The notes beneath the pieces were generated by a model. That model was not told where the DNA came from. It did not search any database and was given only the letters and a program-made list of their open reading frames with translations. DNA of 63,713 bases, counting the filler, from Craspedostauros australis (taxonomy: Eukaryota): the NCBI GenBank assembly GCA_030167865.1. It is 15 parts of 15 records of this genome, joined end to end, with 100 filler letters (N's around TTAATTAATTAA, not from the genome) between each part and the next. Parts side by side here need not be neighbours in the genome. Positions count along the whole stretch, not along the records: positions 1 to 18,185 come from JALAGF010001047.1; 14 more parts are not named here. One strand, 5' to 3'. Below, one piece after another: positions 7,064 through 60,806 of the stretch (its first letter is position 1; each line of letters opens with the position of its first letter). The position numbers and the translations under genes were made by a program.

Positions 7064-7618
7064 CGTGTGATGCTTGAGCTGTTGTTATTCTTCGTTACCA
7101 AAACGCACCCTTCTCCAGCTGCCTCGATTGGGTCCAAGTTAGTATTGCTTCCTTCTTGATGCTCTCCGGCTGCACACACACGAGCGCACACACGAGTGGA
7201 GATGCGATTGTCTGTGATGTGTGGGGCCTCCTTCGGTTTCTGCGTCCACCCTCATTTTCTGGTTGCCTTGATTTCGTGTTTTGGGCGGGTGATGTCCGGG
7301 GACCGTGGTAAACACTGATTTGTTAATAATATCAGCAAAATTTCAATCGGGGATATCTCAGTCTGTCCTTGATGCGAATGATGGATACTTGTGGCTTCAC
7401 GATGGTGGTACCGTGTTTGGACGATTCGTCATCAACAATTTCACCCACCACAAACAACCAAACCCACCCAGAAACGTGCACACAACATCAACGCACGTTG
7501 TCGTCATGGGTGGAATGCTGAGCAACAGATTACAGCGAGCTCACCATAGAATCCAGTTCATGCTGTTGCCCCTCACTTCCTCGAACAGCGTTGACCCACT
7601 CCCCTTCCATCTCGCACC

Positions 7619-8977
7619 ATGACGGTCTCTCCCTCCTCCCTCTTCCAGATCTCGAACCTGAAGCTCGCCAACGAGGCAAAGTTGAAGGGCGTTCCCATCT
7701 CCACAGGAATCGGTTACTTCGATCACATGATCGATCAACTGAATTCCCATGCGCAAGTTGGCATCGGTCTGCAGGTTCAGTTGGCGGGAGGCGGCGGCAG
7801 CAGAAGCAGCGACAGCGGCGAGAATCGCAACTTCCATGCCAACCAGGATCAGAAGGCGTTGCTGGAAACGGTGGGACGAGCTGTTGGGTCGGAGCTGAAT
7901 CAGATGATGGCGTCGATGTGGACGGACAGCGACGCCATGGCCTCGCTGGAGAAGGAATCCTTCCGATTCTGCTGTCCGTTGGACGAGGCGTTGGTGGAAT
8001 GCGTGTTGCAACGCGTCCCCACGAACGGAGAGCTGTCGGGAGATCTGACACCCTACGGTCACTTCCCGAAGGCGGGTGGACGCAAGCACATTGGGTCGTT
8101 GGAGACCATCGCGCTGGCCGAATTCTGGAAGGGCGTGGCGTCGGAATCTCACTTGAACATCACCCTGCAGCAGATCCGTGGCACCAACGCCCATCACGTG
8201 TGCGAATCGGCCTTCAAGGCGTTCTCTCGTGCCTTGCGCACCCTGCTGGACTCGTCCTATCCCGACAGTCTGTGGGCCGCCCAAAGCGAAAATCAAAAGG
8301 CCAGCGCCGCGCTGAACCGCCAAGGCAAGGTGGCGCGCCAGACGAAAGAAACGTCGATCGAGATCGATTTGCGATTGAGCCAGCCCGATGTCAACGTGCA
8401 GATCTCGACGGGCATTCCGGTGCTGGATACTTTCTACACGCTGTTGGCGGAAGCTGCTGAAATGAGCCTCACTGTGGAGTGCAAGGGCGATCTGTGGGTC
8501 GACGAGCATCACACTGCGGAGGATGTCAGCATCGCAATTGGCCAGTGCCTGACGCAAGCCTTGGGCACCAAGGCGGGGTTGAATCGCATGTGGCTGGGCA
8601 AGGGTCAGCACAACGACGCCACGGTCGAAGTCACGATGGATCTCAGCAACCGCCCATGCTTGGGACACAACTTGGAAGAGTTTCTGCAACGCCAAGAGTA
8701 CGTCGACGACGACACGATCAACAGCACGCTGGACGTTGGTTCCTTGCAGCAGCACACCAAGCTGACCTGCGAGATGATGGAACACGTGCTGGATTCCCTC
8801 GTCATGAATGGTCGCATGACGGTGCACGTGGTGCAAACCAACAAGCCAGGCGCCAGCGTGCAGGATACCTTCCTGGCCACCGCCAAGGCCTTCGGTGCGG
8901 CCTTGCGCGTGTGCGCCATGATCGATTGTCGTCGTGCAGGACAGACGGCCAGCAGTAAGGGGACGTTGTCGGTTTAA
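7619..8977 (+). CDS. hisB: Imidazoleglycerol-phosphate dehydratase (histidine biosynthesis), tandem two-domain fusion
   Basis: Domain 1 has ISTGIGYFDHM, PLDEAL and GTNAHHVCESAFKAFSRALR. Domain 2 has RQTKET, ISTGIP, KGDLWVDEHHTAEDV, MDLSNRP and the C-terminal SSKGTL. At 452 aa it is about twice a normal IGPD. Confidence 0.93.
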   Translation: MTVSPSSLFQISNLKLANEAKLKGVPISTGIGYFDHMIDQLNSHAQVGIGLQVQLAGGGGSRSSDSGENRNFHANQDQKALLETVGRAVGSELNQMMASMWTDSDAMASLEKESFRFCCPLDEALVECVLQRVPTNGELSGDLTPYGHFPKAGGRKHIGSLETIALAEFWKGVASESHLNITLQQIRGTNAHHVCESAFKAFSRALRTLLDSSYPDSLWAAQSENQKASAALNRQGKVARQTKETSIEIDLRLSQPDVNVQISTGIPVLDTFYTLLAEAAEMSLTVECKGDLWVDEHHTAEDVSIAIGQCLTQALGTKAGLNRMWLGKGQHNDATVEVTMDLSNRPCLGHNLEEFLQRQEYVDDDTINSTLDVGSLQQHTKLTCEMMEHVLDSLVMNGRMTVHVVQTNKPGASVQDTFLATAKAFGAALRVCAMIDCRRAGQTASSKGTLSV

Positions 8978-9221
8978 AGGAGATATTTAACTAATCTCAC
9001 AGAGTATACCTGTTGGCATGATACAGCAGTGTATTTCGTTGAGAAAATGTCGCTGCTATTGTTGTTGCTGTGGCTGCTAACTCATGTGGAAGTTGATAGA
9101 GTTCTGAGAGTAGAATCAATCTTACCTCTCGAGAGAGTGGGCGTTGCAACACACACACACGCGCGCGCACGCACTCGTATAGTAGTATATGCACTCTACG
9201 CGCACGAAAAATGAGCAACGA

Positions 9222-10430
9222 TCACGACAACAACGCTAACGACACCGTGGCGACGCTGCGCGCATCTCCGAATTTGCCTTGCAACAGCGCCTGCTTCGTC
9301 TCGTCGCGCGTCAGAACCTCGACTTGCTGCGTGCCGGTGTAATCCGATGGCAACCCCGTGACGCCCTTCAGGAGATAGGAATGCACGAAGGCGCCGCCGC
9401 GATCGGGCATGGTGCGATGCCGTCCCAAGTAGGTCCATTGCGATGCCGTGCTGCTGCCGTCGAGCAAGCCGTACTCGTCGACGGTGCGGGGTTGTGGCGT
9501 GTCGTTGTTGTCCGGTATTGGAATGCCGACCGCGATGTGTACCAATTGCTGGGCCACGGCAAAGACGGAACGCGCTTGTTTGTGATCTTGCGATGTCATC
9601 TGGCCCGAGACCGGCCGCCACCGGCGATGTGCTTCGGGGATGGTGGATAGTTTGGCATCGCTCGTCGTTGTGACCCATATGCGCTGCCGCGTGTCGAGGA
9701 TGACGACCTGGATGACGTCCATCTCCTGCAGGATGAGGGCGTCGGGTGCCAGGACGTCCTCGGAGAAGTAGGCGAAGTACGATTGCTGCGGGTTGACGAT
9801 GCGCTGGCAGATGGCGGATTCGGTCTCGGCGACGGTGATGAGAGATGGGTTGACGATCTGATCCATCTGCAGCCAGGATGGGCCGTGGTAGAGCGTGGAC
9901 GTGTCGTCGTCTGCATTCAACGTGCTGCTGATGACCTGGTTCAATGATGCTTGCTGCTGTTTCTGTTCGCCAGCCTTTTGTTGCATACGGTCCAGCCGTT
10001 TCATCTGCTTTTCCAGGTTGGTGCTGAGGAACGTGACGACGAGACATGGGATGAGCAGCAGGATGATGAAGCTGAAATACAGCGGGCCCTTGCGGATGAA
10101 GCTGCTGTTCCGACCTGCCGTTTGGTAGCTGTAGGACGTCCTGCCACCGCCGCTGTGGTGGTAGGGATTGGCATTGTTGAGACCGACGGTGCCTGTGCTC
10201 GTGCTGCGATGGTTCGCAAGGTTGCCAGTGACGTTGTTGTGAACGTTGCTGGAGCCACTGCCAGTGATGGTGTTGGTGTTTGAACTGGCACCGGTGTTGG
10301 CACTGGCGTTGGCACCGGCGTTGGCACCGGCGTTGGCGTTTGGGATACTGAGGTTGCTGTTGCTCACACGACGTTGCGTCTGCATCATGGAAGCATTTGC
10401 AGGCGGATGCGCTGATGATGATCCCATCAT
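9222..10430 (-). CDS. Type II membrane protein with a degenerate Nudix-hydrolase-like C-terminal domain
   Basis: ATG ATG at 10430. Asn/Ser-rich N-terminus, one TM segment (LYFSFIILLLIPCLVVTFL), a short coiled coil, then WTYLGRHRTMPDRGGAFVHSYLL..QVEVLTRDETKQALLQGKFGDARSVATVSLAL, resembling ADP-ribose-pyrophosphatase-type Nudix C-termini. Confidence 0.6.
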   Translation of the reverse strand: MMGSSSAHPPANASMMQTQRRVSNSNLSIPNANAGANAGANASANTGASSNTNTITGSGSSNVHNNVTGNLANHRSTSTGTVGLNNANPYHHSGGGRTSYSYQTAGRNSSFIRKGPLYFSFIILLLIPCLVVTFLSTNLEKQMKRLDRMQQKAGEQKQQQASLNQVISSTLNADDDTSTLYHGPSWLQMDQIVNPSLITVAETESAICQRIVNPQQSYFAYFSEDVLAPDALILQEMDVIQVVILDTRQRIWVTTTSDAKLSTIPEAHRRWRPVSGQMTSQDHKQARSVFAVAQQLVHIAVGIPIPDNNDTPQPRTVDEYGLLDGSSTASQWTYLGRHRTMPDRGGAFVHSYLLKGVTGLPSDYTGTQQVEVLTRDETKQALLQGKFGDARSVATVSLALLS

Positions 10431-10484
10431 CGTTCCTTTCCTTCCATTCGTCTTTCGACGTACTTTAATCCGTCCTGCCTTTGT

Positions 10485-10521
10485 TTGCCTTGCCTTGCCT
10501 TGCCTTGCCTTGCCTTGCCTT
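10485..10521. repeat. (TTGCC)n pentanucleotide microsatellite
   Basis: About 7 tandem copies immediately upstream of the 10430 start codon. Confidence 0.9.
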
Positions 10522-11496
10522 GGTTTCACCTCTTGCTTGAAATGGCTCGGATGGAGCCCGAGGTGACTGCCGAGGCTTTGTCTGTGAACGTTCAGGCAGG
10601 GTCGGGCACTCAATTCCAATTGATTCCACTCCACTCTATCTGCCTCCTCTATCTGAGTATTCGACAAGTGCCCTTGACGCTCTGTGATCTGTTGGTGAGT
10701 TGAGAGGAGGAAGCGTGATGCTTGTGAGTGAGTGACGGGCGCTGGCACGTACACGTAGTCGTAGGAGAACAAGCCAACGTCGCGCTCAGCCGATGTGCAG
10801 ATGCGATGTTCTGTTCGTCTTCGACGATAATCGTCAGTGCTGCTCGGTGTTGAGAGAAGTAATATATGTAGAGGAGAGTATCGATACGCTGGAGTGGTGA
10901 TCGATGGAATGTGGGACAGACCCAATTGAAATGGGACGAGATGAGATGAGGCGAAGTGAGATGAGATGGAGAGGACGAATGAATGAAGCAGGAGCAGGCG
11001 GTTGTTCGTGCGTGTTCTCCATGAGTTCGGAACCAACGCGATTAGAGTAAGTTCAACACGACACAACGTGGTACAGAGCAATACTCGTAGAACCGCATGG
11101 AACCAAGAATTTGTTCGCTGTTGATATTATAGTCGAATGAGTCGAAGAAATGAAATCAAGCGTGTTTGGGTCTTTGCGCGATGTCGCACGACTGGCGGAA
11201 ACACTCCAAACCGCCGAGCGAACGAGAGCGGACGAGGCGGGAGACAAGGACGCTGACGAAGAGAATGGCGGTGCTTGCGGCCCCACCAGCGTCTTCGTGG
11301 TCGCAGTCGTATCCATCACCGCTCTCTGCCGCTCTCTGCCGCTCTCCGAAATTCTTCATCTCTCATTGTAGTCATATCCTCTTGCCACACACTCCTCTAT
11401 ACCTTTGCACGCATCCATCCGATCGACTGGGCTTTCGGGATTGTGGGCATCGTGGGCATCGTGGGCGTTGAGATAGTGGAACGTCTCAATTGTCAA

Positions 11497-11544: not shown

Positions 11545-11642
11545 GCTGAGTCATTGCGAAGTTGCTGCCGAGAGGGTCGCTGCTGGCAGACAGCACTCCA
11601 TGAGCTGCGAGCAGATCGCGCTCACCAAAGTCTCACCAAAGT

Positions 11643-14600
11643 ATGATCAACATGGAGGCCATCTTGCTGGAGGGAGACGATTCGTCGTCAGGATCGGAGG
11701 ATGAGGCGGTCATCGTTTCTACCAACACTTCTGCTGCGGCGGCAGTGGCGGCAACTGTCCCCCAGTCGGTCGCTCCCACTCCCGCGCCGGTGGCAATGCA
11801 ACGCCCAGCGCCAGCCCAAGCCAGAGCGCAGCCTCAGGCGCAGCCTCAGAGACAGATGCAAGCGCCAGCACCGGCGGTTCCCATTGCAGCCCCTGCGCCA
11901 AGGGCTGCACCCAGGGCCGCGTCGGCCGGAGGCAAAGGCAAGCAGCTTCCGCCTCCTCCCACGATGGCGAGGGTCCCCGCACCTGCGCCCGCCGCGATGC
12001 ATGCTCCCGTGGCCGTGCCCACATCTGTGCGACCATCACAGGCCCAACCGCAGACATCGGGTGTGGCGCAACGGCGACCAGCTGCCACCGCCACAGCAGG
12101 AGGGACGTCCATGAATGAAGCGGATCGCTTGGCGCGCTTGAAGAACCTCTACAACTCACAGCCAAAGCGATCGCAACCATCTCCAAACGTGGTTCAGCAG
12201 CAACAACAGCAACAACAACAGCGACACCAAGCCCGTCAGCCCCATCCACAAGCTCGAGTGCACCCAGGATCTCGTCCACAGCAGCAGCAACAACAGCCGC
12301 AACAACAGCCGCAACAACAGCAACAGCAAATGCAGGTGATGCCACAGCAATCCACACCTGGTCGCCAGGTCAGGACCATGCCTGCTCCAGCACAGCGCGT
12401 CATGGCACAACAACCACCACAGCAACAACATCAGAAGCAGCAACAACAACAACATCATCACCAACAACAGCAACAGCGACAGGCATTGGCTGCGCGCCAA
12501 CGCACCATGCCGATGCAACCATCGCAGAACATCCCGCGCGGTCCTTCGAACGCGGTGCATCACCGCGGAGGTACACCATCCCAAGCGATGCAAGCGTCAC
12601 CTTCGATGCGCCATGCCTCGACGCCACCCGTGGAAGATCCATTGGCACCAACTCCCCTGCACAAGATCCAACAGCGTGAGGCGGAGAAGCAACGAAGAGC
12701 CTTGCAGCAGCAGCAATACCAGCGTCAAAAGCAGGCACAGCAACAGCCAGCACGATCCCATGCTCATGCTCGCACCCACCAGCAACAGCAGCAACAACAG
12801 CAACAACAACAACAACAACAACTCCCCTCGCAGTCCACAACGCCACCATCGTCATTGTCCCGCCCCGCGTCATCGCGTACCCATGTGCACTCATCTCGCG
12901 ATCGAAGCAACGATGCTCAGCTGAGACGCCAGAAGGAGCGGTTCCTCATGTTCACAAGGGTCCTCATGCGGTACATCGAGCAGAAGGATCCAGCGCTGCA
13001 TCAGAAGGCCAAGATGATAATCCGAGATTGCGCCGAACGCAACAAGCGGCAGGAGCCAGGCTTCGAGAGCGTCACCACCAGCATGAGGAACCGCCTCAAA
13101 ACCTTGGTCGGTGATCAGTACTGGTCGAAAGCCGAGGCCTACCTGCGCAACTACATCGAGCGCAGAAACGAAGCAGCCAACGCTGCGAACGGAGGCTCCG
13201 GCCGTGGCACAAGCTCCTCCGGAGGAGGGGCCGCCGGCTCGTCGTCCACATCGCGGTCTGCTTCTTCTTCTTCGCAAGCAGCCGTTGATGCCCAGGCTGC
13301 GCAGTTGCAGAAGAAGCGCATCGAACACGAACGTGCGAAGCGATTGGCAGCTGCGCAAGCGGCTAAGCAAAAACAGAGCGCCGCAGCAGCCACTGCGGCG
13401 GCAGTATCATCGGCCAGAACGGCTGCAATCACCGCAGCAGCCACTGCACCAACGTCAGCCATTGTCTCCGCGCCAACATCAACCACGGCACCGGCGCCAC
13501 CACAACCACCACCATCATCAGCAACAACAGCCATAACAACAGCCATAACAACAACCACCACCACGTCGAGCGCATCAACATCCAAAGGCACTTCCAAAAA
13601 GACAAGCGCTTCAAAAGAAACAACCACGAAGAAATCCACAGCAAAGCCCAAGGCATCATCCAAGTCCACAGCGTCCAAACAGGATGGCGAGAAACGACGT
13701 CAATCCTCAACGTCAACCAGCAAGACAGCTGCAGCTGCGGCTGACAAGGCCGCTTCTTCCACCACCACGACCAAGACCACGAAGAAGACCGCAGTGAAAC
13801 GCAAATCGGCCACGTCGTCTCAACCAAGGCGAGCTTCGGGAACGAGCACTGCGAAGGCAGCGGCCGAAGCCAAGGCAGCAGCCGCGGCTAGTTCCGTGCC
13901 CATCAAGCCACCAGAACCGCCGCGTGAGCCACCGCCGCGCGAATTCAAGGAGTACATGGAGATGATCGACCACGCCGCCTCGTACGATTGGACGACGTCT
14001 GGACAGCTGCTGGGATCCACCGCAGACGTCAAGCTGACGGAGGAGCAAAACTTGTTGATGTACAAGAAACCAGTCAAGTCTGCTGCAGACGATGCCAAAA
14101 GCCCCACCACCGCTGGCAAATCCGCCAAGATCCGAAAGGGGTGGGGCAACGAGAATGTGTGCTCCGCCAGAGCGGCATTCGCCCGCGTTCGGTTGGCGCA
14201 ACGGAAACGATTGAATACGCAGCGTCAAAAGGCATCGATGACGACGACGACCACAGCTCCGCCGGCTGTGGCAGATGGATTGCTCAAGCTTCCAAGCACG
14301 GCAGCCCAGGCGGCGGCCACTCCAGCGCCAGTACCGGAACTCTCCGACCCTCGCCTGGCCTGGAAGAATGAAGCGACTGCGGAGCAAGATCCCGTTCTGG
14401 CCTTGTTGTCCGAAGCATGCCAGGCCTACCTGAAGGGCGTCCTGGAGAAGACAGTATTCTGCGCACGCCAACGTCAGAACGTGGACGCCATCCGTCTGTG
14501 GCATGATCAGCATCTCATCAACAAGAAGACGGGCAAACCCTCCAAGCTGTCGCAAGCAAAGATGGAGGAAGCAGCGCCGCCGCTCTCTTTGAGGCTTGGT

Positions 14601-14978
14601 TGCGATGTCACGCGACAGGCGGCGAGGGCGGCTGGCAACGCCGCAATGACCTGCAAGCGCATGGAGGACGCGTTGGAACGGCAGTCCGATCTGCCTCCCG
14701 CAGCGCGCGTCCTCGATGCATCCACCTTCCAGGATGTCTCCAGCATGTCCGAACTGGCCATGCGTCCCAAGCTTTTGAAGGGCGTCGAAACCGCCGATTA
14801 CAACGCCAAGCGAAGCTTCGAAGTGTACGGCGGCAAGCACGCCAACGAACCTCCCTTTGGGCGTCTGGCGAAGCAGGCCAAGTTAGAACTGGTGGATCTC
14901 TCCGCTGCAGGGCAGTTTGCGAATACTGGAGTCCACCAGGCCACCACTACCTCCATGTCTCTCTTCCTTCGCATGTAA
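11643..14978 (+). CDS. TFIID subunit TAF4-like protein (polyQ N-terminus, central helical domain, C-terminal histone fold)
   Basis: 1111-aa intronless ORF. Q/P/A-rich N-terminus, a helical domain (KERFLMFTRVLMRYIEQKD..LKTLVGDQYWSKAEAYL), and DPVLALLSEACQAYLKGVLEKTVFCARQR resembling the TAF4 histone-fold helix, followed by an AAGNAA segment. Confidence 0.6.
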   Translation: MINMEAILLEGDDSSSGSEDEAVIVSTNTSAAAAVAATVPQSVAPTPAPVAMQRPAPAQARAQPQAQPQRQMQAPAPAVPIAAPAPRAAPRAASAGGKGKQLPPPPTMARVPAPAPAAMHAPVAVPTSVRPSQAQPQTSGVAQRRPAATATAGGTSMNEADRLARLKNLYNSQPKRSQPSPNVVQQQQQQQQQRHQARQPHPQARVHPGSRPQQQQQQPQQQPQQQQQQMQVMPQQSTPGRQVRTMPAPAQRVMAQQPPQQQHQKQQQQQHHHQQQQQRQALAARQRTMPMQPSQNIPRGPSNAVHHRGGTPSQAMQASPSMRHASTPPVEDPLAPTPLHKIQQREAEKQRRALQQQQYQRQKQAQQQPARSHAHARTHQQQQQQQQQQQQQQLPSQSTTPPSSLSRPASSRTHVHSSRDRSNDAQLRRQKERFLMFTRVLMRYIEQKDPALHQKAKMIIRDCAERNKRQEPGFESVTTSMRNRLKTLVGDQYWSKAEAYLRNYIERRNEAANAANGGSGRGTSSSGGGAAGSSSTSRSASSSSQAAVDAQAAQLQKKRIEHERAKRLAAAQAAKQKQSAAAATAAAVSSARTAAITAAATAPTSAIVSAPTSTTAPAPPQPPPSSATTAITTAITTTTTTSSASTSKGTSKKTSASKETTTKKSTAKPKASSKSTASKQDGEKRRQSSTSTSKTAAAAADKAASSTTTTKTTKKTAVKRKSATSSQPRRASGTSTAKAAAEAKAAAAASSVPIKPPEPPREPPPREFKEYMEMIDHAASYDWTTSGQLLGSTADVKLTEEQNLLMYKKPVKSAADDAKSPTTAGKSAKIRKGWGNENVCSARAAFARVRLAQRKRLNTQRQKASMTTTTTAPPAVADGLLKLPSTAAQAAATPAPVPELSDPRLAWKNEATAEQDPVLALLSEACQAYLKGVLEKTVFCARQRQNVDAIRLWHDQHLINKKTGKPSKLSQAKMEEAAPPLSLRLGCDVTRQAARAAGNAAMTCKRMEDALERQSDLPPAARVLDASTFQDVSSMSELAMRPKLLKGVETADYNAKRSFEVYGGKHANEPPFGRLAKQAKLELVDLSAAGQFANTGVHQATTTSMSLFLRM

Positions 14979-45490: not shown

Positions 45491-45590
45491 NNNNNNNNNN
45501 NNNNNNNNNNNNNNNNNNNNNNNNNNNNNNNNNNTTAATTAATTAANNNNNNNNNNNNNNNNNNNNNNNNNNNNNNNNNNNNNNNNNNNN

Positions 45591-46999
45591 GAGCTGAGCG
45601 TTGGTCACTCCGACATGATCGACATCATGGATGAGAGCAGAGAAGGCGCAGGCAAACTGGGTCAACGGATCAGAGGTGATACCGCACGTGTGATCGTGGA
45701 GGCTGGCCGCGACTTGATCGGTGGCTTCGGTGACCGAAACTCCATCGATCGACTTCTCCAGCATCAGGTCGGTCGGCGCAACGATGCGAGCCAGGAGCTT
45801 GATGACGGACATGGTCACGTGCGATGCGTGCTCGAAGTTGTGGAAGGAATTGGCACGGTACATGCTGGCGATGCTGGCGATCAGCTCTCGCAGCTGCTGT
45901 ACGATGACAGGATCGAGATGGATCTGATCTGGATCGGCATACTGTCTGGCGATCTTGGAATCGAACTCAGGAAGGCTGATGATCTCCCGCACCTCATCGA
46001 GCGGATTGAAAGTCACACCGATATCGATGTCGATGTCGGATGGGTGAGCAGAAGGCTGGTCCCAACTTGAGGAGCTTGTGAATACTTGAGATCGACGTGA
46101 CTTCACAGTGTTGGAGTTCTCGTTGATGGCATCCCTGCGAGCGACGATCTGCTTGATCAGATGCAGCATCATCTCCACGTTCCAGTCCACAAGACGCAGG
46201 CTGCGCTCGTCCAGTCCGCTTTCTGCGACGCGGCCTGATTGGTCCGCTGGTCTGGACGGAGCTGGCATGAGGCTCTGCAGGAATCCAGCATCGCTGTTGC
46301 TGGTGCAGCTTCCGCGATCCTTCTGGTCGTATCCAGAGCCGATCCAGTATCTGCGCATCGGAGAGACGTCGAATGAGCGATGGAGCAGACAGGAAGGCAG
46401 GTGACAATTGAGAGATAGATTGCACAGATCATGAGTAATCATGTGTGAGATGAAGAGGAAGACGACAAACGAAGCAACAACAGTGTAGGGAATAGTAGCA
46501 GTAGCATCAACAGCATCAACAGCATCAACAGCATCAACAGCATCAACAACACAAACACAAACACAAACACCAATGCAACCGTCAACTCACGTTTGCATAT
46601 CCCCCTTTCCTTTGGCCTTCACCATGTGCTCGCGTTTGATCAGCCAGTGNNNNNNNNNNNNNNNNTTCAAATACTCAGCAGTCTCCGTAGACACCTGGAT
46701 TCGCCCAACCTGACCAGTGTGCTCGATACGGGAAGCCGTATTCATCGTGTCCCCGAACAGCTGGAAGCGAGCCCTCTCTCCTCTCAGGACACCAGCGGTC
46801 ACCGGACCCGAGTGGATTCCGATACGAAGCGACAGATCACCCGTATCTGGGCCGTGCGTGATCTCCAGCTCCTTCGTCATCACGTTCACGCGTGTGAGGA
46901 TATCGCGAGCGAATCGGACCATCACCACGGCATGATCCTTTCGCGGATCAGGGATGCCGGTGGCGGCGACGTAGCAGTCACCGACGGTCTCGACCTTGA
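45591..46999 (-). CDS. Cyclase-PDE fusion gene, internal fragment (copy A)
   Basis: KVETVGDCY..RIGIHSGPVTAGVLRGERARFQLFGDTMNTASR..KGKGDMQT, intron, then YW..RLVDWNV..YRANSFHNFEHASHV..SDPLTQFACAFSALIHDVDHVGVTN (PDE HD motif). Confidence 0.93.
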
Positions 47000-47099
47000 N
47001 NNNNNNNNNNNNNNNNNNNNNNNNNNNNNNNNNNNNNNNNNNNTTAATTAATTAANNNNNNNNNNNNNNNNNNNNNNNNNNNNNNNNNNNNNNNNNNNN

Positions 47100-48475
47100 G
47101 AGCTGAGCGTTGGTCACTCCGACATGATCGACATCATGGATGAGAGCAGAGAAGGCGCAGGCAAACTGGGTCAACGGATCAGAGGTGATACCGCACGTGT
47201 GATCGTGGAGGCTGGCCGCGACTTGATCGGTGGCTTCGGTGACCGAAACTCCATCGATCGACTTCTCCAGCATCAGGTCGGTCGGCGCAACGATGCGAGC
47301 CAGGAGCTTGATGACGGACATGGTCACGTGCGATGCGTGCTCGAAGTTGTGGAAGGAATTGGCACGGTACATGCTGGCGATGCTGGCGATCAGCTCTCGC
47401 AGCTGCTGTACGATGACAGGATCGAGATGGATCTGATCTGGATCGGCATACTGTCTGGCGATCTTGGAATCGAACTCAGGAAGGCTGATGATCTCCCGCA
47501 CCTCATCGAGCGGATTGAAAGTCGCACCGATATCGAGGTCGATGTCGGATGGGTGAGCAGAAGGCTGGTCCCAACTTGAGGAGCTTGCGAATACTTGAGA
47601 TCGACGTGGCTTCACAGTGTTGGAGTTCTCGTTGATGGCATCCCTGCGAGCGACGATCTGCTTGATCAGATGCAGCAGCATCTCCACGTTCCAGTCCACA
47701 AGACGCAGGCTGCGCTCGTCCAGTCCGCTTTCTGCGACGCGGCCTGATTGGTGCACTGGTCTGGATGGAACCGACATGAGGCTCTGCAGGAATCCAGCAT
47801 CGCTGTTGCTGGTGCAGCTTCCGCGATCCTTCTGGTCGTATCCAGAGCCGATCCAGTATCTGCGCATCGGAGGGACGTCGAATGAACGATGGAGCAGACA
47901 GGAAGACAGGTGACAATTGAGAGGTAGATTGCACAGATCATGAGTAATCATGAGTGAGATGAAGATGAAGAAGACAAACGAAGCAACAACAGTGTAGGGA
48001 ATAGTAGCAGTAGCATCAACAGCATCAACAACACAAACACAAACACCAATGCAACCGTCAACTCACGTTTGCATATCCCCCTTTCCTTTGGCCTTCACCA
48101 TGTGCTCGCGTTTGATCAGCCAGTGNNNNNNNNNNNNNNNNTTCAAATACTCAGCAGTCTCCGTAGACACCTGGATTCGCCCAACCTGACCAGTGTGCTC
48201 GATACGGGAAGCCGTATTCATCGTGTCCCCGAACAGCTGGAAGCGAGCCCTCTCTCCTCTCAGGACACCAGCGGTCACCGGACCCGAGTGGATTCCGATA
48301 CGAAGCGACAGATCACCCGTATCTGGGCCGTGCGTGATCTCCAGCTCCTTCGTCATCACGTTCACGCGTGTGAGGATATCGCGAGCGAATCGGACCATCA
48401 CCACGGCATGATCCTTTCGCGGATCAGGGATGCCGGTGGCGGCGACGTAGCAGTCACCGACGGTCTCGACCTTGA
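47100..48475 (-). CDS. Cyclase-PDE fusion gene, internal fragment (copy B; allele or recent duplicate of copy A)
   Basis: Same endpoints and the same internal N gap as 45591-46999. Differs by SNPs and by intron microsatellite copy number. Confidence 0.93.
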
Positions 48476-51665: not shown

Positions 51666-54600
51666 AATACTAGTGGCTTTTGGCTTGGATGGAGGCCAAT
51701 TTTTTGGTAACCATTGGGAACAATTGGTATCTAGTCGTATGAGTCGATTTTGACGTAGACGCTGGTACATTTTGTACGTCAGTCCCACGCGAACCGGCCC
51801 AAAAACCACCATTTTTGACACAAACCTCTTCGGCAAGTCCATGCCGCTCCATTTGTTTGAGCTCTCCTTTTGTGAGCATTCTCATGTGTGGCTTTTAATC
51901 ACCCTCTCCAAGTTTGGTGGCGATTGGTTGGGTAGGTGTCGAGATCTGCTCGTTTCTCTGGGGCCACCACTCGATATTGACATTCACGAATGCCAATCAC
52001 CACGATGCATCGTGGAGAATTTCAGTGCAACTATGCAGTGGTCATCTTGCTTCATCCTGGAGCCATCACCAATGCTCAACATTCCAATACATCATACATT
52101 CCGTCCATATTATGGTACTGTAGTTAAGTTCAGACAGTCAGTCCAGGGTCCTCGATGTGATTCAATGCATGTTGCTCAAAGCAAGTGCTTCTGCTGCCAT
52201 CTTCCCCAACTGGAGAGCAACACCACACTGTTTTATTCGCTGCTGCAGAAGGGCATCCGTGGCAGACGTAGTTGACACTCTTCTTGCATCTGCAGCACTT
52301 GCCTCTTTTCTTCCTCCACCCCATCACTTTCTGCCCCTTGGAGTTTGTGTACGAGTTGGGGATGGAGTCTTCGGTGACTCGAATGCAATGATTGCATATT
52401 TCGAACATTGTGTTCCTTTCTTTTGGCCTTGGTGGTAGTGGAGCAATCTCTATACCTCGTTGTGAATCGTTGCTGGTTGTATCACTTGATGTTGCACTGA
52501 TGCCAACAACAAGTGTTTGGTCATATCTTGCAATGCGGTCTTTGTTGTTTTGTATCATGTCTTCTGCAAGTAGATTGATGAAGTCCACAAGTGTCACATG
52601 CTTATGCCTGTGGTTGCCTGCCATGTGATGTTTGTATGCCAGCCATGCATCCACCACAGTTATACCAAACAATGTCGTCACAAGGCGAAAGTAGCCATTG
52701 CGGGTCCTCCACACCCTCTCAAGACTGAGGGTGTCTTGGCGTTCTTGATTGTGGCTATCCACTTTGCCACAGTCGCGGAAGTATTTTGCTGCGACTTGGG
52801 GTCTTGAAATTTCCCTGGACTCCGCAGTATCTTCATCTGAGGTCCACCGGGCGATGTATGGGTTGCCCGGGTTCGCATAACCCACCCCTTCTGAGAACAC
52901 AAACAAGATCACTTTCTTCTTGCAATACTTGTACCCCATTGCATAGTATGCAGTTCTTGTTTTGTTGCTGCCATCGCCACTGTCTTCGTCATTGCCTTTG
53001 CACCGAAGGAGCAGCTGCGATCCAGATGGCCAATTCTCCATTGATTTCTCAAGAAAGGCTTTCGGGAAACTGGCATGGTTGTTTTTGACGACGCCAGTGA
53101 AATCAGAATCTGCTTGAGTGGTCAAGGCATGAACTGTCCGATAGGAACCGAACCAGGCATCGCCAAGGAAGATGCTCTTTGGAAGGTGTGGTGGATGGTA
53201 GTGAAGGTTCTGCTCTCCCATTCTTCTGGTGGCCATCGCCATGCAAAGGGTGCAGGCAACATGTGCTTGCTTCACAGTATCAAGATACTTTGCGTTCTCC
53301 ATTCCCTTCTTGCCTCTCTGTATCTCCAGGTGGATGATGCCAGTTGCACTATCGGCCACTGACTTTAGCTCGGTACCTAAGGGCTCTGGCTTGCGACTGA
53401 CGAATGTCAGGTGTGGCAGGTTCCCAGTTTTCTTTGTTTGAGGTTGGAAAGCGCTCATGGATTCATCAAGTACTTTGATATGACTTGGTATGACAACTTT
53501 GGAGCGCCGGCGGTTGAATGCCTCGATGCCTGCCTGAATCTGCCACCATGGATCCTCGCCCCTCCTTGATTCATCCGCAAATATCATCGGCATCAGAATC
53601 TCGCGAAGTTGGCGGAAGCGTCCTTTGGACATGTAGTTCGAGATGTTCGTTGTCTGCAGGAACCCCTCCTGTTGTCCCTGTCCCCACAGGTTGCAGGTGT
53701 TGTGAAGCTTGCTCAAAAGCAGGATGCCAAAGAACACCCAGAACTCGCTGTCGGAGACAGTGCGAGAGATCCCGATCGAATCTCCTGCTGAATTCGCATT
53801 GATGATCCGCTGGTTGAAGCAGTCCACCTGCGCTTTCCAGTCACCTGGCCACATATGTTGGATGAGACGCAACAAGTTGGCATGGCCCCTTCGGTTGCTG
53901 CTTGACTTCCGCGATGTTTCGCGGAAGTCAAACCCAGTCACTGCCACAGTCTTGCATGTCGTAGGGCTGTGAGCTTCGATGTGGTCGTCAGGAACCACAG
54001 TCCAGGTCTGAGTATCAAGGCCCTTGCCCACAACCACATTCGTCCCCATAAGGGCAAGCTTGGCTGCCCTGTGCGGCACTGCGTCGGCCAGTCGGTTGCC
54101 TCGAAAGGAGTAGTCAAGGCGTGGTCCATCATGGACTGACAAGGCGCTGGCGTCGTCGCCCATTGGCAAGTCGCCGCCACCATCAGCATCATCGGCTCCA
54201 TCAGAGGCATCGCAGGTGCTGCAAAGATCAGCGCGAAGCTCGTCGCCATCGGAGATTGCTCCTTCGACGCGAAAAGAGCGAGAGGCGGAGTCTGATCCAG
54301 CTGGAGGAACTCTTGACATCGATTCAGGGTGGCCATGATGGGAATGATTGGAACTGTTTGAAATCGATGCGTGGGCGATGGAGACGCCAGCCATCACGTT
54401 CCTGACTGCTGAGCCAATCTGGAGCTCTGCATGGGGCGCAGCGATGAATGCGCGTTTCTTCTGGAAGCGTCGCAGTGCCAACACACCCTTCCCAATGTAG
54501 CGGGTGCGGATGAGGTCGGTAATTTCCTCAGGAGGGGCATGGTGAATGGGTTCGTTGCTGAGCTTCAACGTCGCAGCTTGGTGGTCACACACAACCTCGA

Positions 54601-55573
54601 GCGAGGTCCAGTGGATCGACTAGACACAATCAGCGAGGGACTTCAGGACGATGCCGCGGAGAGGGACCTTCTCACCATGAGATCCGTGGGAGGGATGGTT
54701 GAACTTGGAGAGGACGTGGGAACCAACTTTGAGAGGCATGGTGAAGAGGAGTGTTGGTGGTGGACGAGTTGATTGTGATACTTGGAGGAGCACTGATATG
54801 GAGGAAAGTTGGTATATGTGTGGAGCAAGTGAAGGACGAAGACCAATACTACATGGGCGGGTGCAAGAGAGGATACTATGTCGATTGAAGGCAGCCACAC
54901 GATGATACGACGTCAGGGCGATGCAACAACCTTGCATAAAGTAGATAGACTCATGTGAGCAACTCAGTCCGAATCAACAACACGTAAACAACACGCGATA
55001 ATTTTTGGCGCGAACTTTTTTACGTTCACGGATTGATGATCATGCCTGTCATGAGCATTAGTGACTAACTTCGAACACACAATGCAACACACAAAAGCAA
55101 TCTGGACCGCCGACCAGCACACCACCCGAAGCAGAATGAAGTGACGAATACAGCCATGCCATTCACTTGAGCAATTGACGAAACAGAATTGGATGCAGGT
55201 CTTTGGAAGATGGTTGGTCGAGATTGGACGAAAACGCAACAAATTTCTGTACCAGAACGTCGTAGACTCTACGCGGTTACCAATGGTTACCAACGAAAAA
55301 ATTCCGAAATCACGTCCGTACGTCGTCCGTACGAAAAATACCGATAAAGGGTTAAAACAGGCATCAAGATGAACAGCAAGCGGAGACCGTTTGCCAACAA
55401 TGAACACATCAACAGATAGCTCTCACTCTCCTCTTTTCTAATGGTGCAAAGATGTCGGTCAACGGCCATCAGCTCATCGAATGGTTGCTTGTGCTGTCGG
55501 CGATAGGCCAATGGTTACCAACAACTACCAAAAAGTGCAAAAAACCGGAAATTAGCCACTAGCCACTAGTATT
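51666..55573 (-). mobile_element. piggyBac-family DNA transposon, apparently full length, with inverted termini
   Basis: 18/20 inverted repeat (51666-51685 versus 55554-55573). Subterminal TTGGTAACCATTGG at 51704-51717, inverted at 55280-55293 and 55508-55521. Encloses the transposase. Confidence 0.75.
52130..54739 (-). CDS. piggyBac-like DDD transposase with C-terminal Cys-rich domain and one in-frame TAG near the N-terminus
   Basis: Catalytic-triad motifs VLDESMS, FLGDAWFGS and KVDSHNQERQ. Also RKPEPLGTELK, MSKGRFRQL and CCRC..CHGC..CC..CFEQH. The frame extends upstream to the ATG at 54739 through a TAG at 54622-54620. Confidence 0.92.
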
Positions 55574-57498
55574 GATGGAAGTGAACTGAGCAGGAGGAGT
55601 GCAAGAAGGTGACAATACAAGAACTACATGAACATGCCAAAAGCACAGCACACCACCGCAGAAAAGCAAAACTCGATTTGGCGGCAAAATGTGAGGAGAT
55701 TTGTGACATGTGACGAGAGTCAAATTTGAATTTGAATGATAACGTCTAGAAGCGGCTTGTTATTTCAAAAACGTGTTCGGACAGGTTGAACAATGACGTC
55801 GCTGAAATGTCAAATTCCGTACGCAACCCGTCAAAAATATTTCTCTCCCGAACGTGTCTGCGCACATTGCGTTGTTTGCATCGGAAAAGCTAATCAATCC
55901 CTTGCGATCATCACGGAGCATTGTGCATATTCGACCAAGAGGACCGTAAATCTACAAAGGTGGATAAAAATTAAAATAAGACATTAAAGCAAAATCTGCG
56001 TCCACTATGATTCTTATATTTTTCTCTAGTTTATGAATATGTGCGTGGTTTGGTATAAATCCCCGTAAGTTGCCACCCCTCCAGGACCGACTGCAGGTCC
56101 CGTCACACAACCGGGTCATATCGCATGTAATTTGATGAGTCCCAGGGTCCAAAATAACCTGATAGAGACATTTATTTTGGGGGGTGGATGAGAATTTCGC
56201 TNNNNNNNNNNNNNNNNNNNNNNNNNNNNNNNNNNNNNNNNNNNNTTAATTAATTAANNNNNNNNNNNNNNNNNNNNNNNNNNNNNNNNNNNNNNNNNNN
56301 NGAGGTACCCTGCGCACTCCACGCATCCCACGATCATGTTCTCAGATAATCCTTTCATGTGCGCGACAGTGGCAGTGGCATGGAAGGAATGGTACAGACT
56401 CTCAAGGACAACACAGGCACAGATGATCTTTGTGATTTAGCCACAGTGGACATCCTTTGGTATGACATGATGGCTTCGACGCATTGATGGTACCATGCAT
56501 TCCACCATTTCTTGCTGGACATGCAGGAGGATTTGGTCGGTTGTTGATGGCATTGATGTCATTGATGTCATTGATGGCATTGACGGCTGTGGGGGACTGG
56601 CCGATGAGCACAGTAGTTGACCATTGCTCCAAAAGATCTTCGGATGCGAAGAGCGGTATCGTATGTTTGGTTGGCATCTATTGGTGCAGCAGTTTGTCCA
56701 TTCTGTGTGTTCTGCCATTCGTGGAGTTGGTCGTTTGTCTGTTGGTTGATTTGCGCTGCTGAATTGTGGATTTTGTTTGTTGTGCGGAGTGATCACTTGT
56801 CTGCCCATTCATTTGNNNNNNNNNNNNNNNNNNNNNNNNNNNNNNNNNNNNNNNNNNNNNNNNNNNNNNNNNNNNNNNNNNNNNNNNNNNNNNNNNNGAT
56901 CGTACGATGCTCATGCTGTTTGACATTTGAGCCACGCAGAATCTGTAGTGTGTGCAGGCGCGCATCCGCATCAGACAGCATTCCATGGGATGCCAGAGGA
57001 GCAACATCAATTAGAGCACAATGATCAATGAGTGGCATTGATGTAGGTGATGACAAATCAAACTGGAACAAGTGATTGTTGCCAAATACTCTGCTGATTT
57101 GTTGGTTGCAGCCAACAGAACTCAGTCAGGTGTTCTCTGTTATGTACCCTGCAGGCTCTGCAGCTGTGACCTGTGAGCTCTGCTTGCTGCCAAATGATGC
57201 AGAGTGATCTGTTGATCGTTTTGAGATACTTTGCTTTATGTACTATGCTCTTTGTTGGATACTCTGGTGTTGGGGATTTGTAGTTTCTTGATTGTTGCCA
57301 ATTACTTTGCAGTGTATTCGATGCTTGATCCTTTTCTGCTGCTGGTTGCTTCCTGTTGGATCTTCTCTGTGAATTTGGTTGTGGTTGGATGCTCCTCGNN
57401 NNNNNNNNNNNNNNNNNNNNNNNNNNNNNNNNNNNNNNNNNNTTAATTAATTAANNNNNNNNNNNNNNNNNNNNNNNNNNNNNNNNNNNNNNNNNNNN

Positions 57499-59140
57499 CA
57501 TTAGTTACACTAAACACATAAGCTTCGGAGATAAACGCTACTGGACCCTGATCGTGGACGACTGCACGGATCACTGCTGGAGCTTCTTTCTCAAGAACAA
57601 GAGTGATCAACCAGGATACATCAAACGATTCGTCCAAACGATCAAATCACACACTGGTGACCAACAGATCATCTTCCGAGGTGACAACAGCGGAGAGAAC
57701 AAATCCACGCAGGATATTCTCATCGACGCAGGACTGACCGTGAAATTCGAATTCACAGCATCGAACACGCCGCAACAGAACGGTAGAGTAGAACGCAAGT
57801 TCGCGTACCTCTACACCAAGATCCGCTCCATGCTCAACGGAGCACAGCTCGACAAAGAGTATAGGCATGGCCTGTGGGCAGCAGCTGCTAGCACTGCCAC
57901 CGCCATCGCCAACATCACCATAGCGAAGAATCAAAAGGAGTCACCACATAGACAATTCTTCGGCAACGATCCACCATACGCGGATGCACTCCGCACATTT
58001 GGAGAGGTGGGTGTTGTGAAGACTACCTACGGCGGGATCACCGCAAAACTCAAGAATAGAGGAGAAGAGATGGTGTTCATCGGGTATGCACACCAACATG
58101 CATCAGGGGTCTACAACATGTACAGACCATCGACCAAGTCACTCATCTGCTCACGCGACATCAAGTGGCTCAACCAATCATACGGACAGTTCCGTGGCTG
58201 GGCGCCAGCACCGAACATATCCAACGAAACAGGAACAACGGACGCAGACGGCTTCACAACCATCGGACGGAAGGGAGCAACACCAAGAACGGCAACGCGT
58301 CAAACATCGAAAACAAAGAGAGTATCTTTTGCTGACAGCAACATGTACTACATCCTATCGGACAGCGAAGATGAGGATAATGAGGACGACGGAGCAGTAA
58401 CTCAACTAGTCCATAACGACGAGGAGGATCGGAGCGAATCCAATCACGAGGATGACGAGATCATACCATCCAACGATGAAGCCGAAGATGACACAGGCGT
58501 TACTCCTCCGAATACACCAGCGAGGTCTACACATGGCACACCATCCAGACCTCCACCGAGCAAGCCAAGCAAGCGTGACATAGCTAGAAAGGAGAGGATC
58601 CGACGTCATGAAGCACGAGGCAGGAAGGGAGAAGCTAATCCCAAGTCAACTACAGGGAAGAGCATTCCCATAGCTCTGCGTGAGCTCGCAGACTTCAACG
58701 AACGAGGTCGAAAGGAAGAGGGCTATGAGAGCGATCCATCATCCAACGAAGATAGTGACGAACTCAACGACGAGATGATCGACGATTCCAACAACGAAAC
58801 TACAGATGACGAAGAAATTGCAGATGAAGGAGAGATTGAGATCACTCACTATAGCACAACAGGACTATACGGGATGAACGCAATCATCAATGACGCACCA
58901 GCGATCGATATCGGATTATCGATGCAGGACGAGAACAAGGAACCAGAGAAGCACATCGAACCAACGACATTCGATGGAGCCTTCAATCATCCAGATCCCA
59001 TCCATCGAAAGGGATATCGAGCAGCCATCAAGAAGGAGTTCGACTCCATGGACACACGCAAGGTGTACAGCAAGATCAAACGAGACGCCATCCCACGCGG
59101 CCGCAGATGCTGCAAATGCAAATGGGTCTTCAAGCTGAAG
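57499..59140 (+). mobile_element. Ty1/copia pol fragment: integrase core, linker and start of RT
   Basis: YWTLIVDDCTDHCWSFFLKNKS, RGDNSGEN, EFTASNTPQQNGRVERKF, KLKNRG..FIGYA, SRDIKWL, AIKKEFDSM, CKWVFKLK. Confidence 0.95.
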
Positions 59141-59222
59141 TGTTAGAACGTAATCGTAGATGGGTGTGAAGGATACCGCACCGAGAACGTAGAGTGATCA
59201 AGTCGTTGTTGTTGGTGAGGAG
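59141..59222. mobile_element. Probable terminus of a second LTR element nested in the RT gene
   Basis: Pol homology ends abruptly after KWVFKLK and the sequence switches to TGTTAGAACG..., a TG-start typical of copia LTRs. Confidence 0.55.
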
Positions 59223-59322
59223 NNNNNNNNNNNNNNNNNNNNNNNNNNNNNNNNNNNNNNNNNNNNTTAATTAATTAANNNNNNNNNNNNNNNNNNNNNN
59301 NNNNNNNNNNNNNNNNNNNNNN

Positions 59323-60706
59323 ACCGTTTGGTATGACGCTTTTCGCGCTGGTACGGAATTTACCGCCACGGGCCTCAAGCCATTTCTGTGCCATCTTCGT
59401 GACCTCACGGACGTATCGCTGGGATCCCATGCTCCACTTCGGCCGCTCTGGTTCTGCTGTGAGATGGAACGGAGCGATTGTAGAGCCGAGGTATGTTGTT
59501 GGTGGACCGATCGAGGCAGGTTTGAGAAAGAAGTAAGAACCAATGTGTGAGAGTATCGCGCTGGGATCTTTGGAGATCGCCAGAATGTCATCAGTGTACA
59601 CGAGGATGTACTCGTAATATTCAGACCCATCGCTCGTNACNGNTGGCTTNATCCAAACATCGCTGTCTGCACGACACGAGGTGAATCCGAGTGAGTTCTG
59701 CAGTGTCTCTGCAAGGTGCGCCCTCCAGGCAGCGCCGCTTGATTTGAGCCCATAGAGTGCGCGACAGACTATTGCTACCTTGCCTGCGTCTGCCCCGAAC
59801 TCAGGTCCACATGTTGTGTAGACGCGTTCGCGGCATAGCGCGTTGAGGTATGCGTTCATTACATCTGCCGCAAGCACATCGAGGTCGTTCAGCGCCGCCA
59901 AGAGGAATGCGATTCGAACGCTTTCGCGTGTCACCACACTGGCATATGTTATGCTGGATGGTGCTTCAGTCATGTGACCNCCTGCCACAAGTCGNGCCTT
60001 NCGTGTGAGGTCGACTTTGATATCGAAGATCATGTGACATGCAATGTAGGTGTATCCGACTGGTGGCTTCGTGTCTTCGGTCTTGATGTCGAACGCTGGT
60101 CGAACGTTCTTCATCTCCTTCTCTAACGCTTTGCGCCAGAAGTCGGTTCCTGTTTCCTCGTCAATTGCAAGAGCTCGTTGGACGCTCTTCGGTAGTTCGA
60201 GACCATATTTCTCATTTCGTCGGAAGTATCGTTTACGGTTGGCCATCAGGATGCGGTTGCGCCGCTTCATTGTGTATGGAACCCACCATCGAAAGGCAGG
60301 CTCATTGGTGAGCTGGTTGTTGGTTGCATATTCGGCTGTCTTCACAGGGTCAGCCTCCTTGGCATCGCGTAAGTGAATCCATGATGTAGACCCGTCTTTC
60401 CATAACACACACAGCTTCCATCCCTTGGTCGTCTTCGTGGTCGTCTTGTCATCAGCGGTTGCTGCGGTTGGGAGTCGCTTATGGTCGATGATGTCCTCCA
60501 TCAAGAGTGTTGTGTATCCGTCGTCATCTGTTCGCGCGTAGATATTTTCCGCGATCTGATTCGCATTGAATACTTCGCTGTGCCCGTCGACAAATTCAAC
60601 CTCATACATGGACGTGTCAAGCAGTGGATTTGAATGTGAGTGACCAATCAGCTTCCCGCTCGCATCGCGTTTTCGGCGCTTCACAGTACCAAATTGGATG
60701 TCATCA
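59323..60706 (-). mobile_element. CoDi-type Ty1/copia pol fragment: chromo-like segment plus reverse transcriptase
   Basis: NPLLDTSMYEVEF, TTKGWKLCVLWKDGSTSW, EPAFRWWVPYT, CHMIFDIK, YASVVTRESVRIAF, RALYGLKSSGAAWR, ILVYTDDIL. Confidence 0.95.
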
Positions 60707-60806
60707 NNNNNNNNNNNNNNNNNNNNNNNNNNNNNNNNNNNNNNNNNNNNTTAATTAATTAANNNNNNNNNNNNNNNNNNNNNNNNNNNNNNNNNNNNNN
60801 NNNNNN

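Follow-up and report, generated by a model that had tools for sequence, protein, structure and literature searches.

In Craspedostauros australis (assembly GCA_030167865.1), an open reading frame (ORF) related to imidazoleglycerol-phosphate dehydratase (IGPD) was found to contain two IGPD folds in tandem, each of which keeps a different part of the canonical active site. The ORF lies at 7619..8977 on the plus strand of the window, by which we mean the whole stretch of 63,713 nucleotides that was analyzed (15 parts of 15 records, joined with filler), and runs from ATG to TAA over 452 amino acids. An in-frame TGA at 7592-7594 stands eight codons 5' of the start codon and therefore excludes an N-terminal extension or presequence in this frame, and methionine occupies the start column in 86 of 121 aligned sequences, the query counted. 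No second IGPD was detected within the window, as a hmmsearch of its 583 six-frame ORFs returned a single match, the tandem IGPD itself. Residues were mapped by HMMER alignment to 2f1d_A/4mu0_A, by hhalign, by MAFFT alignment of the query with its 120 best relatives (121 sequences), and by hmmalign of 179 split tandem proteins, all of which agree. Reference sites carry the numbering of Arabidopsis IGPD, and A, A' and C denote the three identical subunits among which the canonical dimanganese site lies. The features of the gene, with residue numbers of the query in parentheses, are as follows.

7619..8977, plus strand: whole gene, tandem IGPD, 452 amino acids and TAA stop, no intron required, in-frame TGA (7592-7594) on its 5' side.
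7619..8251, plus strand: domain 1 (D1; 1-211), complete IGPD fold with the chain-A half-site only, by Pfam, hhalign, AlphaFold2 and structure match.
7718..7750, plus strand: D1 FDHMIDQLNSH (34-44), in which H36 = H47 (Mn1 ligand), Q40 = Q51 and H44 = H55 (phosphate pocket).
7823..7855, plus strand: D1 degenerate first metal motif, NRNFHANQDQK (69-79), where DxHHxxE would stand.
7976..7990, plus strand: D1 PLDEA (120-124), in which D122 = D108, the carboxylate holding the Mn2 water, in 121 of 121.
8186..8218, plus strand: D1 NAHHVCESAFK (190-200), in which H192 = H169, H193 = H170, E196 = E173 and K200 = K177, aligned to 2f1d_A 167-177.
8252..8317, plus strand: linker (212-233) with a short predicted helix (224-231), standing in place of the D1 C-loop.
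8318..8914, plus strand: domain 2 core (D2; 234-432, D2 in total 234-452), complete IGPD fold with the chain-A'/C residues, by Pfam, hhalign and structure match (Z 27-28).
8336..8353, plus strand: D2 RQTKET (240-245), in which E244 = E21, the proposed acid-base catalyst.
8420..8458, plus strand: D2 degenerate helix-1 motif, VLDTFYTLLAEAA (268-280), in which H47 is replaced by T271, Q51 by L275 and H55 by A279.
8501..8524, plus strand: D2 DEHHTAED (295-302), in which H297 = H73, H298 = H74 and E301 = E77, each in 121 of 121, aligned to 2f1d_A 71-78.
8579..8587, plus strand: D2 LNR (321-323), in which R323 = R99 (phosphate binding, chain C), in 121 of 121.
8639..8656, plus strand: D2 DLSNRP (341-346), in which R345 = R121 (phosphate binding, chain C), in 121 of 121.
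8780..8785, plus strand: D2 EH (388-389), in which H389 = H145 (Mn2 ligand, chain A'), in 121 of 121 and in 175 of 179, with four gaps.
8849..8887, plus strand: D2 degenerate second metal motif, GASVQDTFLATAK (411-423), in which H169 is replaced by Q415, H170 by D416 and E173 by L419.
8915..8974, plus strand: D2 C-loop (433-452), with RR at 438-439 and ASSKG at 444-448, in which S445 = S199, K447 = K201 and G448 = G202, in 120 of 121, with one gap.

The preliminary description of this DNA had proposed a single ORF with two IGPD folds, and this was borne out by Pfam, hhalign, AlphaFold2, and structure matches. Pfam PF00475 matched the whole tandem protein with an E value of 1.1e-54 (184.9 bits; cut-off 27), residues 1-236 alone with 2.8e-21 (76.6 bits), and residues 233-452 alone with 1.4e-33 (116.5 bits), while hhalign against an alignment of 23 single-domain IGPDs gave probabilities of 99.95 over 172 columns for D1 and 100 over 201 columns for D2. 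The AlphaFold2 model of the whole chain, built with 107 homologs, was confident over both domains (predicted local distance difference test [pLDDT], 92.4; predicted template modeling score, 0.92), and D1 folded alone reached a pLDDT of 93.1. When compared with solved IGPDs, the D2 model (232-448) matched with Z 27-28 and a root mean square deviation (rmsd) of 1.3-1.5 A over 184-194 residues, its alignment to the closed-form entries 4mu4 and 5ekw taking in the ordered C-loop up to residue 448. The D1 model (5-211) matched with Z 22-23 and an rmsd of 1.9-2.3 A over 162-171 residues (Arabidopsis 18-188), and unrelated folds scored Z 8 or below in both lists. Both domains show the duplicated half-domain fold of IGPD, four helices between two four-stranded sheets, with equal order of secondary structure. 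A complex prediction of D1 (1-215) and D2 (228-452) with two manganese ions scored 0.76, with 0.60 for one control in which an unrelated partner was used.

The tandem arrangement is shared by a sizable family. A word-indexed search recovered 504 relatives, and 118 of the 120 best were tandems of 403-530 amino acids with 46-58% identity to the query; the named sources included Cylindrotheca, Nitzschia, Mediolabrus, and Skeletonema, together with labels starting Odonte-, Synedr-, and Thalass-, and Thalassiothrix was a further diatom. At least nine of the best relatives were MMETSP transcript ORFs labeled complete. An exhaustive search gave 93 representatives at E <= 1e-30, one protein (P0142) aligned over its full length at 44% identity, and the ESM Atlas held a Bacillariophyta cluster and a Chlorophyta cluster at tandem length. 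Named tandem members outside the diatoms came from the dinoflagellate Yihiella, a pelagophyte, and the green prasinophyte Cymbomonas. A survey for further split-site tandems found an identical motif pattern, in the order D1 then D2, in 152 of 179 tandem homologs from diatoms, the pelagophyte, the dinoflagellate, and green prasinophytes, the remainder being truncated or quirks of the regular expression. The kept active-site residues were invariant in 107 diverse sequences, in which D1 and D2 also carry many invariant non-catalytic residues. These data make it scarcely credible that neighboring IGPD genes, or an assembly duplication, were read as one ORF. Short D1-only and D2-only ORFs do occur in metagenomes, but they end or begin in non-homologous sequence, as is typical of exon fragments, and for the same reason we set them aside as candidates for a naturally split two-gene form. 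Moreover, the frame is open over 452 codons, the linker keeps its length and part of its sequence (W219, S223, N225, and R234 in the 121-sequence alignment), the best matches are full tandems with complete transcripts among them, and D1 and D2 are too far from identical for an assembly repeat. One sequencing run, possibly of RNA, yielded two contigs that covered 8631-9143 only, a span outside which the D1-D2 junction lies.

The residue map divided the canonical site between the two domains. Each domain has one (D/N)xHHxxE motif instead of two, D1 only the second (NAHHVCE) and D2 only the first (DEHHTAE), which gives two in the polypeptide. In D1, H36 (117 of 121), Q40, and H44 (119 of 121 each) are interrupted only by gaps and are invariant in the 107 sequences, H192, H193, E196, and K200 are each present in 121/121 (MAFFT) and 179/179 (hmmalign), and D108/E109 are kept as D122/E123 in 121/121. 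The same domain has lost E21, replaced by I11 (I, V, or L in the family), R99, replaced by E113 (A, R, or S), R121, replaced by T144 (A or P), and the C-loop, replaced by the linker. Its degenerate first metal motif shows no conserved His or Glu by MAFFT or hhalign, with N71 conserved in 118 of 121 sequences, Q78 in 119, and R at position 72 in 107 (F in the query). At the H145 position the query has E168, and Glu likewise stands there in eight of ten aligned bacterial-type IGPDs; because the position is unconserved among D1s (S in 53, T in 11, and C in 8 of 121), the loss of H145 holds family-wide. The conserved R116 of D1 was considered as the R99 equivalent and rejected by strand register, the equivalent being the variable E113.

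In D2, R240 (R17), T242 (T19), E244 (E21), and T245 are each found in 121/121, K243 (K20) is found in 116/121, and the E21, H73, and H74 positions are occupied in 179/179. The lost motifs read DTF at 270-272 and SVQDTFLA at 413-420 in the query. In the family, position 271 holds E (51 sequences), A (19), or Q (13), 279 is E in 95 of 121, 415 is variable, 416 is D or E in 117 of 121, and 419 is L or M. D108 is replaced by N332 in the query and by G in 81/121, and the K177 position is K in only 28/121 and hence unconserved. An apparent second HHxxE in D2 of eight homologs was discounted, as all six inspected were chance HH at positions 144-145. The eight manganese ligands (H47, H73, H74, E77, H145, H169, H170, and E173) each occur a single time in the polypeptide, four to each domain, are invariant across the family, and are found complete in neither single domain. 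The catalytic and phosphate-binding residues among E21, E173, R99, R121, K177, and C-loop S199/K201 are all present, as E244, R323, R345, S445, and K447 in D2 and E196 and K200 in D1, and all 17 catalytic, metal, and phosphate residues are kept once per polypeptide and invariant.

This division coincides with the one published for the inter-subunit site. According to the available portion of PMC6029752 on Acanthamoeba IGPD (6FWH; numbering converted), Mn1 is bound by H74 of A' and by H47, H169, and E173 of A, and Mn2 by H73, E77, and H145 of A' and by H170 of A. Chain A further gives K177, H55, and D108 (D101 in Acanthamoeba), which holds the Mn2 water, chain C gives R99, R121, and the C-loop Ser/Lys, and the sites adjoin the molecular two-fold axes. 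Identical manganese ligand sets are listed in Table 2 of PMC4509728, PMC10978614 gives concordant ligands with arginines from the third subunit, and in Arabidopsis the E21Q mutant and a C-loop deletion are both inactive (PMC4509728). Measured against this reference, D1 keeps 8/8 chain-A residues and 0/9 chain-A'/C residues, and D2 keeps 9/9 chain-A'/C residues and 0/8 chain-A residues as conserved residues. The complementary split of the 8 chain-A and 9 chain-A'/C residues gave a Fisher p of 4e-5 (4e-4 with Glu21 counted as chain A), in a test where residues inside one motif are not independent. The preliminary description had named the kept and lost motifs of both domains, set out the division of the site among subunits, and read the losses as following it: each motif is present where it was placed, the division so set out agrees with PMC4509728 and the available portion of PMC6029752, the retained residues do partition by donor subunit in the HMMER, hhalign, MAFFT, and hmmalign alignments, and the losses track the division family-wide at every residue named in that portion.

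Judging from the retained residues, the tandem protein is likely a working IGPD (EC 4.2.1.19), fused and subfunctionalized, whose dimanganese site would form only between D1 and D2. D1 would play only the part of A, with H36, H192, H193, and E196 as manganese ligands, D122 to hold the water, and Q40, H44, and K200 for the phosphate pocket. D2 would play only A' and C: manganese would be bound by its H297, H298, E301, and H389, and it would also contribute E244 as acid-base residue, R323 and R345 for phosphate binding, and S445/K447 in the C-loop that closes the site. A complete site would arise at a junction of D1 in role A with D2 in role A', closed by a second D2 in role C, and the mirror-image site, with D2 as A and D1 as A', would be dead. 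Such a division of roles would leave one active site per two domains and, because a second D2 is needed as C, would require at least two chains to associate, neither domain being sufficient on its own. We infer that the enzyme is catalytically active in the Mn-dependent dehydration of imidazoleglycerol phosphate and that neither D1 nor D2 works alone. That the tandem protein is instead no longer an IGPD, but a neofunctionalized or regulatory paralog (e.g., a metal- or ligand-binding shell protein) beside a canonical IGPD that makes histidine elsewhere, seems improbable to us. Such a paralog would not be expected to keep all 17 invariant active-site residues. In addition, no diatom single-domain IGPD appeared among the named short matches of a D2 search (335 candidates scored, a weak test), in which the high-identity matches were pieces of D2 and the others were fungal and other canonical enzymes, and the available part of PMC3901274 assigns T. 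pseudonana one gene for each histidine-pathway enzyme.

Two trees bear on the history of the two domains. In a first tree (72 rows; quick IQ-TREE with a mixture model), 17 D1s formed one clade and 17 D2s another, each with a Shimodaira-Hasegawa-like approximate likelihood ratio test (SH-aLRT) value of 100 and with similar inner branching, and the query halves fell inside their respective clades. The like branching of the two clades indicates one fusion followed by joint descent in algae. Holding D1 and D2 together was not rejected (approximately unbiased test, p-AU 0.72), both domains lying on long branches. For a second quick tree (74 rows), the very long row P0206 was removed and Cymbomonas P0205 and the metagenomic P0246 were added. 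The 17 algal D2s (99) then fell inside a 31-row group (99) with three cyanobacteria and 11 single-domain proteins. Five of the six single-domain proteins of this group that were looked up were named as plant, streptophyte-alga, or red-alga proteins or clustered with a green-alga protein. The trees place the algal D2 within the plastid/cyanobacterial IGPD group (SH-aLRT 99), Cymbomonas P0205 joined both the algal D1 and the algal D2 clades, and a duplication within one lineage fits these trees. The form probably goes back to a plastid-type IGPD that was duplicated in tandem in an alga and whose copies then underwent complementary losses.

P0246, a bacterial-looking, K/I/N-rich and seemingly low-GC protein of 389 amino acids with 31% identity, has an equal D1/D2 order and complementary losses, and its D2 grouped with an Oscillospiraceae IGPD (SH-aLRT 97), apart from the algal D2s, on a long branch and with an odd composition. 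It probably represents an independent bacterial origin of the split-site tandem, and from its separate placement the split form seems to have arisen at least twice. A scan of genome contigs with the family alignment found no close prokaryotic tandem among the 80 loci kept, all of which were single-domain bacterial IGPDs with 29-37% identity.

The division of roles between D1 and D2 also bears on the assembly of the enzyme. The particle could be a 12-chain, 24-domain shell with tetrahedral (23) symmetry in place of the octahedral 24-mer, in which all-D1 and all-D2 trimers would alternate on the cube corners of the canonical octahedral shell and give 12 live sites. The edge two-fold that relates A to A' belongs to the octahedral group but not to its tetrahedral subgroup, which allows a 24-domain shell to be two-colored by trimers. 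At the dead sites, N71-R72 of D1 (7826-7831) and acidic residues at 279 and 416 of D2 (8453-8455 and 8864-8866) are conserved in the family. These residues might form a metal-free salt bridge at the former second manganese pair; no covariation was seen between the D1 N71-R72 and the D2 279/416 columns in the 121 sequences. We tentatively suggest, as a possibility with somewhat less than even prospects, that in a tetrahedral 12-chain cage the covalent linker and the metal-free dead interface replace half the manganese bridges of the 24-mer, so that assembly is no longer Mn-dependent at every junction, and that complementary decay took place independently at least twice, in algae and in bacteria. 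A working IGPD with composite D1-D2 sites could also do without a 24-domain shell, by pairing between different chains, in a smaller ring, or as a trimer of chains. The need for a second D2 in role C sets the minimum at only two chains, and the covalent link obviates the Mn-driven trimer assembly known for the canonical enzyme (PMC10978614). Nevertheless, we regard such an assembly as unlikely, as the complete folds (rmsd ~1.3-2.3 A to subunits of the 24-mer) and the invariant non-catalytic residues fit, if weakly, the persistence of canonical interfaces.

Several points weigh against a composite enzyme in a tetrahedral shell. In the available part of PMC3901274, P. tricornutum has two IGPD ORFs, which favors the non-IGPD paralog. 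At the level of motifs (3 versus 6), the split reached a Fisher p of 0.012 only, and the query itself departs from two family-conserved dead-site residues (R72 to F and E279 to A). A closed 12-mer would require that A' and chain C be related by the three-fold axis; were C instead related in this way to A, no 1:1 closed shell could, by a group-theory argument, have all D1 sites complete. Finally, the acid-base residue appears as 'Glu21A', that is, chain A, in the legend to Figure 2B of PMC4509728, the only chain label for Glu21 that a check of the literature turned up. If this label is right, the sole assembled site would be without an acid-base residue, as D1 has I11, and the paralog explanation would gain accordingly.

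The label 'Glu21A' and the label 'D101A' (= D108; Fig. 3c in the available portion of PMC6029752) are mutually incompatible under the internal two-fold of the fold. According to PMC7284861, the strands of the sheet run in the order beta1-beta2-beta4-beta3, and an internal pseudo-two-fold relates one half-domain to the other. As E21 (beta1) is the pseudo-symmetric partner of D108 (beta5), which lies in chain A with H169/H170, E21 should stand beside H73/H74 of its own chain. We think that Glu21 belongs to chain A', not A, on the basis of this topology, the D101A label (PMC6029752), and its co-retention with the A' set. E21 is kept with that set in D2 and is invariant in 179 proteins, which fits placement on A', and the residue split of the tandem IGPD itself would favor that placement.

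With regard to the locus, no signal or transit peptide stands in frame before the start codon (7592-7621), and the tandem IGPD may, in contrast to plant IGPD, not be plastid-targeted, as far as the reading frame tells. The window is otherwise ordinary eukaryotic nuclear DNA, with Der1, ankyrin, WLM, MIR, and phosphodiesterase-like ORFs, a piggyBac-type transposase, and copia-type retroelement pieces, and the gene neighborhood is therefore uninformative on the function of the tandem IGPD. Two long ORFs, at 9225-11126 (minus strand, 634 amino acids) and 11604-14975 (plus strand, 1124 amino acids), are without any Pfam match; the former contains the low-complexity runs NAGANAGANA... and KARQGKARQGKARQ, and the latter lies within a strongly AT-skewed stretch (0.41, 12001-14000). 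The ORFs at 45546-46586 and 47055-48062 (both minus strand) gave weak partial matches to 3'5'-cyclic nucleotide phosphodiesterase (E ~6e-6, profile positions 1-52 only) and look like a tandem pair. An ORF of 829 amino acids at 52133-54619 (minus strand) carries a DDE_Tnp_1_7 (piggyBac-type) transposase domain (E 5.7e-24). The copia-type pieces (SH3_retrovirus and RVT_2) lie on opposite strands at 57455-59143 (plus) and 59278-60750 (minus) and adjoin the lowest-GC stretch of the window (0.408, 56001-58000).

The fold of D1 and D2 is that of canonical IGPD (bacterial HisB, yeast His3, and plant HISN5; A. thaliana IGPD2 4MU0/4MU4, Acanthamoeba 6FWH, and Medicago 8QAW), in which the eight manganese ligands, E21, E173, D108, R99, R121, K177, and the C-loop are likewise present once per chain, and a like chemistry is presumed. 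Canonical IGPD assembles from 24 identical subunits with 432 symmetry and has 24 sites, each subunit carrying two (D/N)xHHxxE motifs (PMC7284861; available portion of PMC6029752), and both motifs were found in each of 535 IGPD sequences surveyed (PMC7284861). The tandem form, in contrast, has one motif and a half-site per domain and would have at most 12 sites per 24 domains; with no more than one site per two domains, octahedral symmetry could therefore not hold. In the bifunctional HisB of E. coli (histidinol-phosphatase and IGPD; PMC7284861) and in HisC-IGPD fusions (e.g., P0248), IGPD is likewise the C-terminal part of a longer chain, but there a complete IGPD domain is joined to a different enzyme, whereas in the tandem two complementary IGPDs are joined to each other. 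The ancient internal duplication of IGPD, termed gene elongation (Sinha 2004, as related in PMC7284861), preceded the last universal common ancestor and made a single domain in which both motifs are functional. It likewise involved duplication, fusion, and divergence of a module with one (D/N)xHHxxE; the tandem form differs in that it represents a second such round, with decay of one motif in each domain. Paralog heteromers in which one interfacial site is live and the other dead are known from trypanosomatids, namely deoxyhypusine synthase and AdoMetDC/prozyme. Like the tandem IGPD, they build sites at interfaces, keep one of two symmetric sites live after duplication, and have obligate partners, but they differ in their unrelated folds, in having separate genes instead of a fused chain, and in forming small oligomers instead of a cage.

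Literature searches brought up no account of a tandem or split-site IGPD, with supplements (e.g., the 535-sequence alignment of PMC7284861), which may include some, outside the search, and the available part of PMC3901274, on diatom amino-acid pathways, lists IGPD without remark on its architecture. The tandem form is a real and conserved variant of a familiar enzyme, and apparently one that has not been described before. IGPD has long been studied as a target of herbicides and antimicrobials, and here a form that is widespread in nature among major marine primary producers would break its symmetry and carry half the sites. If the composite enzyme is real, it would provide a clean case of duplication-degeneration-complementation within a single active site and would predict a new cage symmetry, and the stoichiometry of inhibitor and metal binding may differ, as may the sensitivity to inhibitors. 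Pathway annotation would also be corrected, as each domain alone resembles a 'degenerate' IGPD, and a green-lineage-type gene would be added to those common to prasinophytes and diatoms. Should the tetrahedral cage and the repeated decay both prove true, IGPD would be a natural, repeatable case of ratchet-like subfunctionalization of subunit-shared sites.

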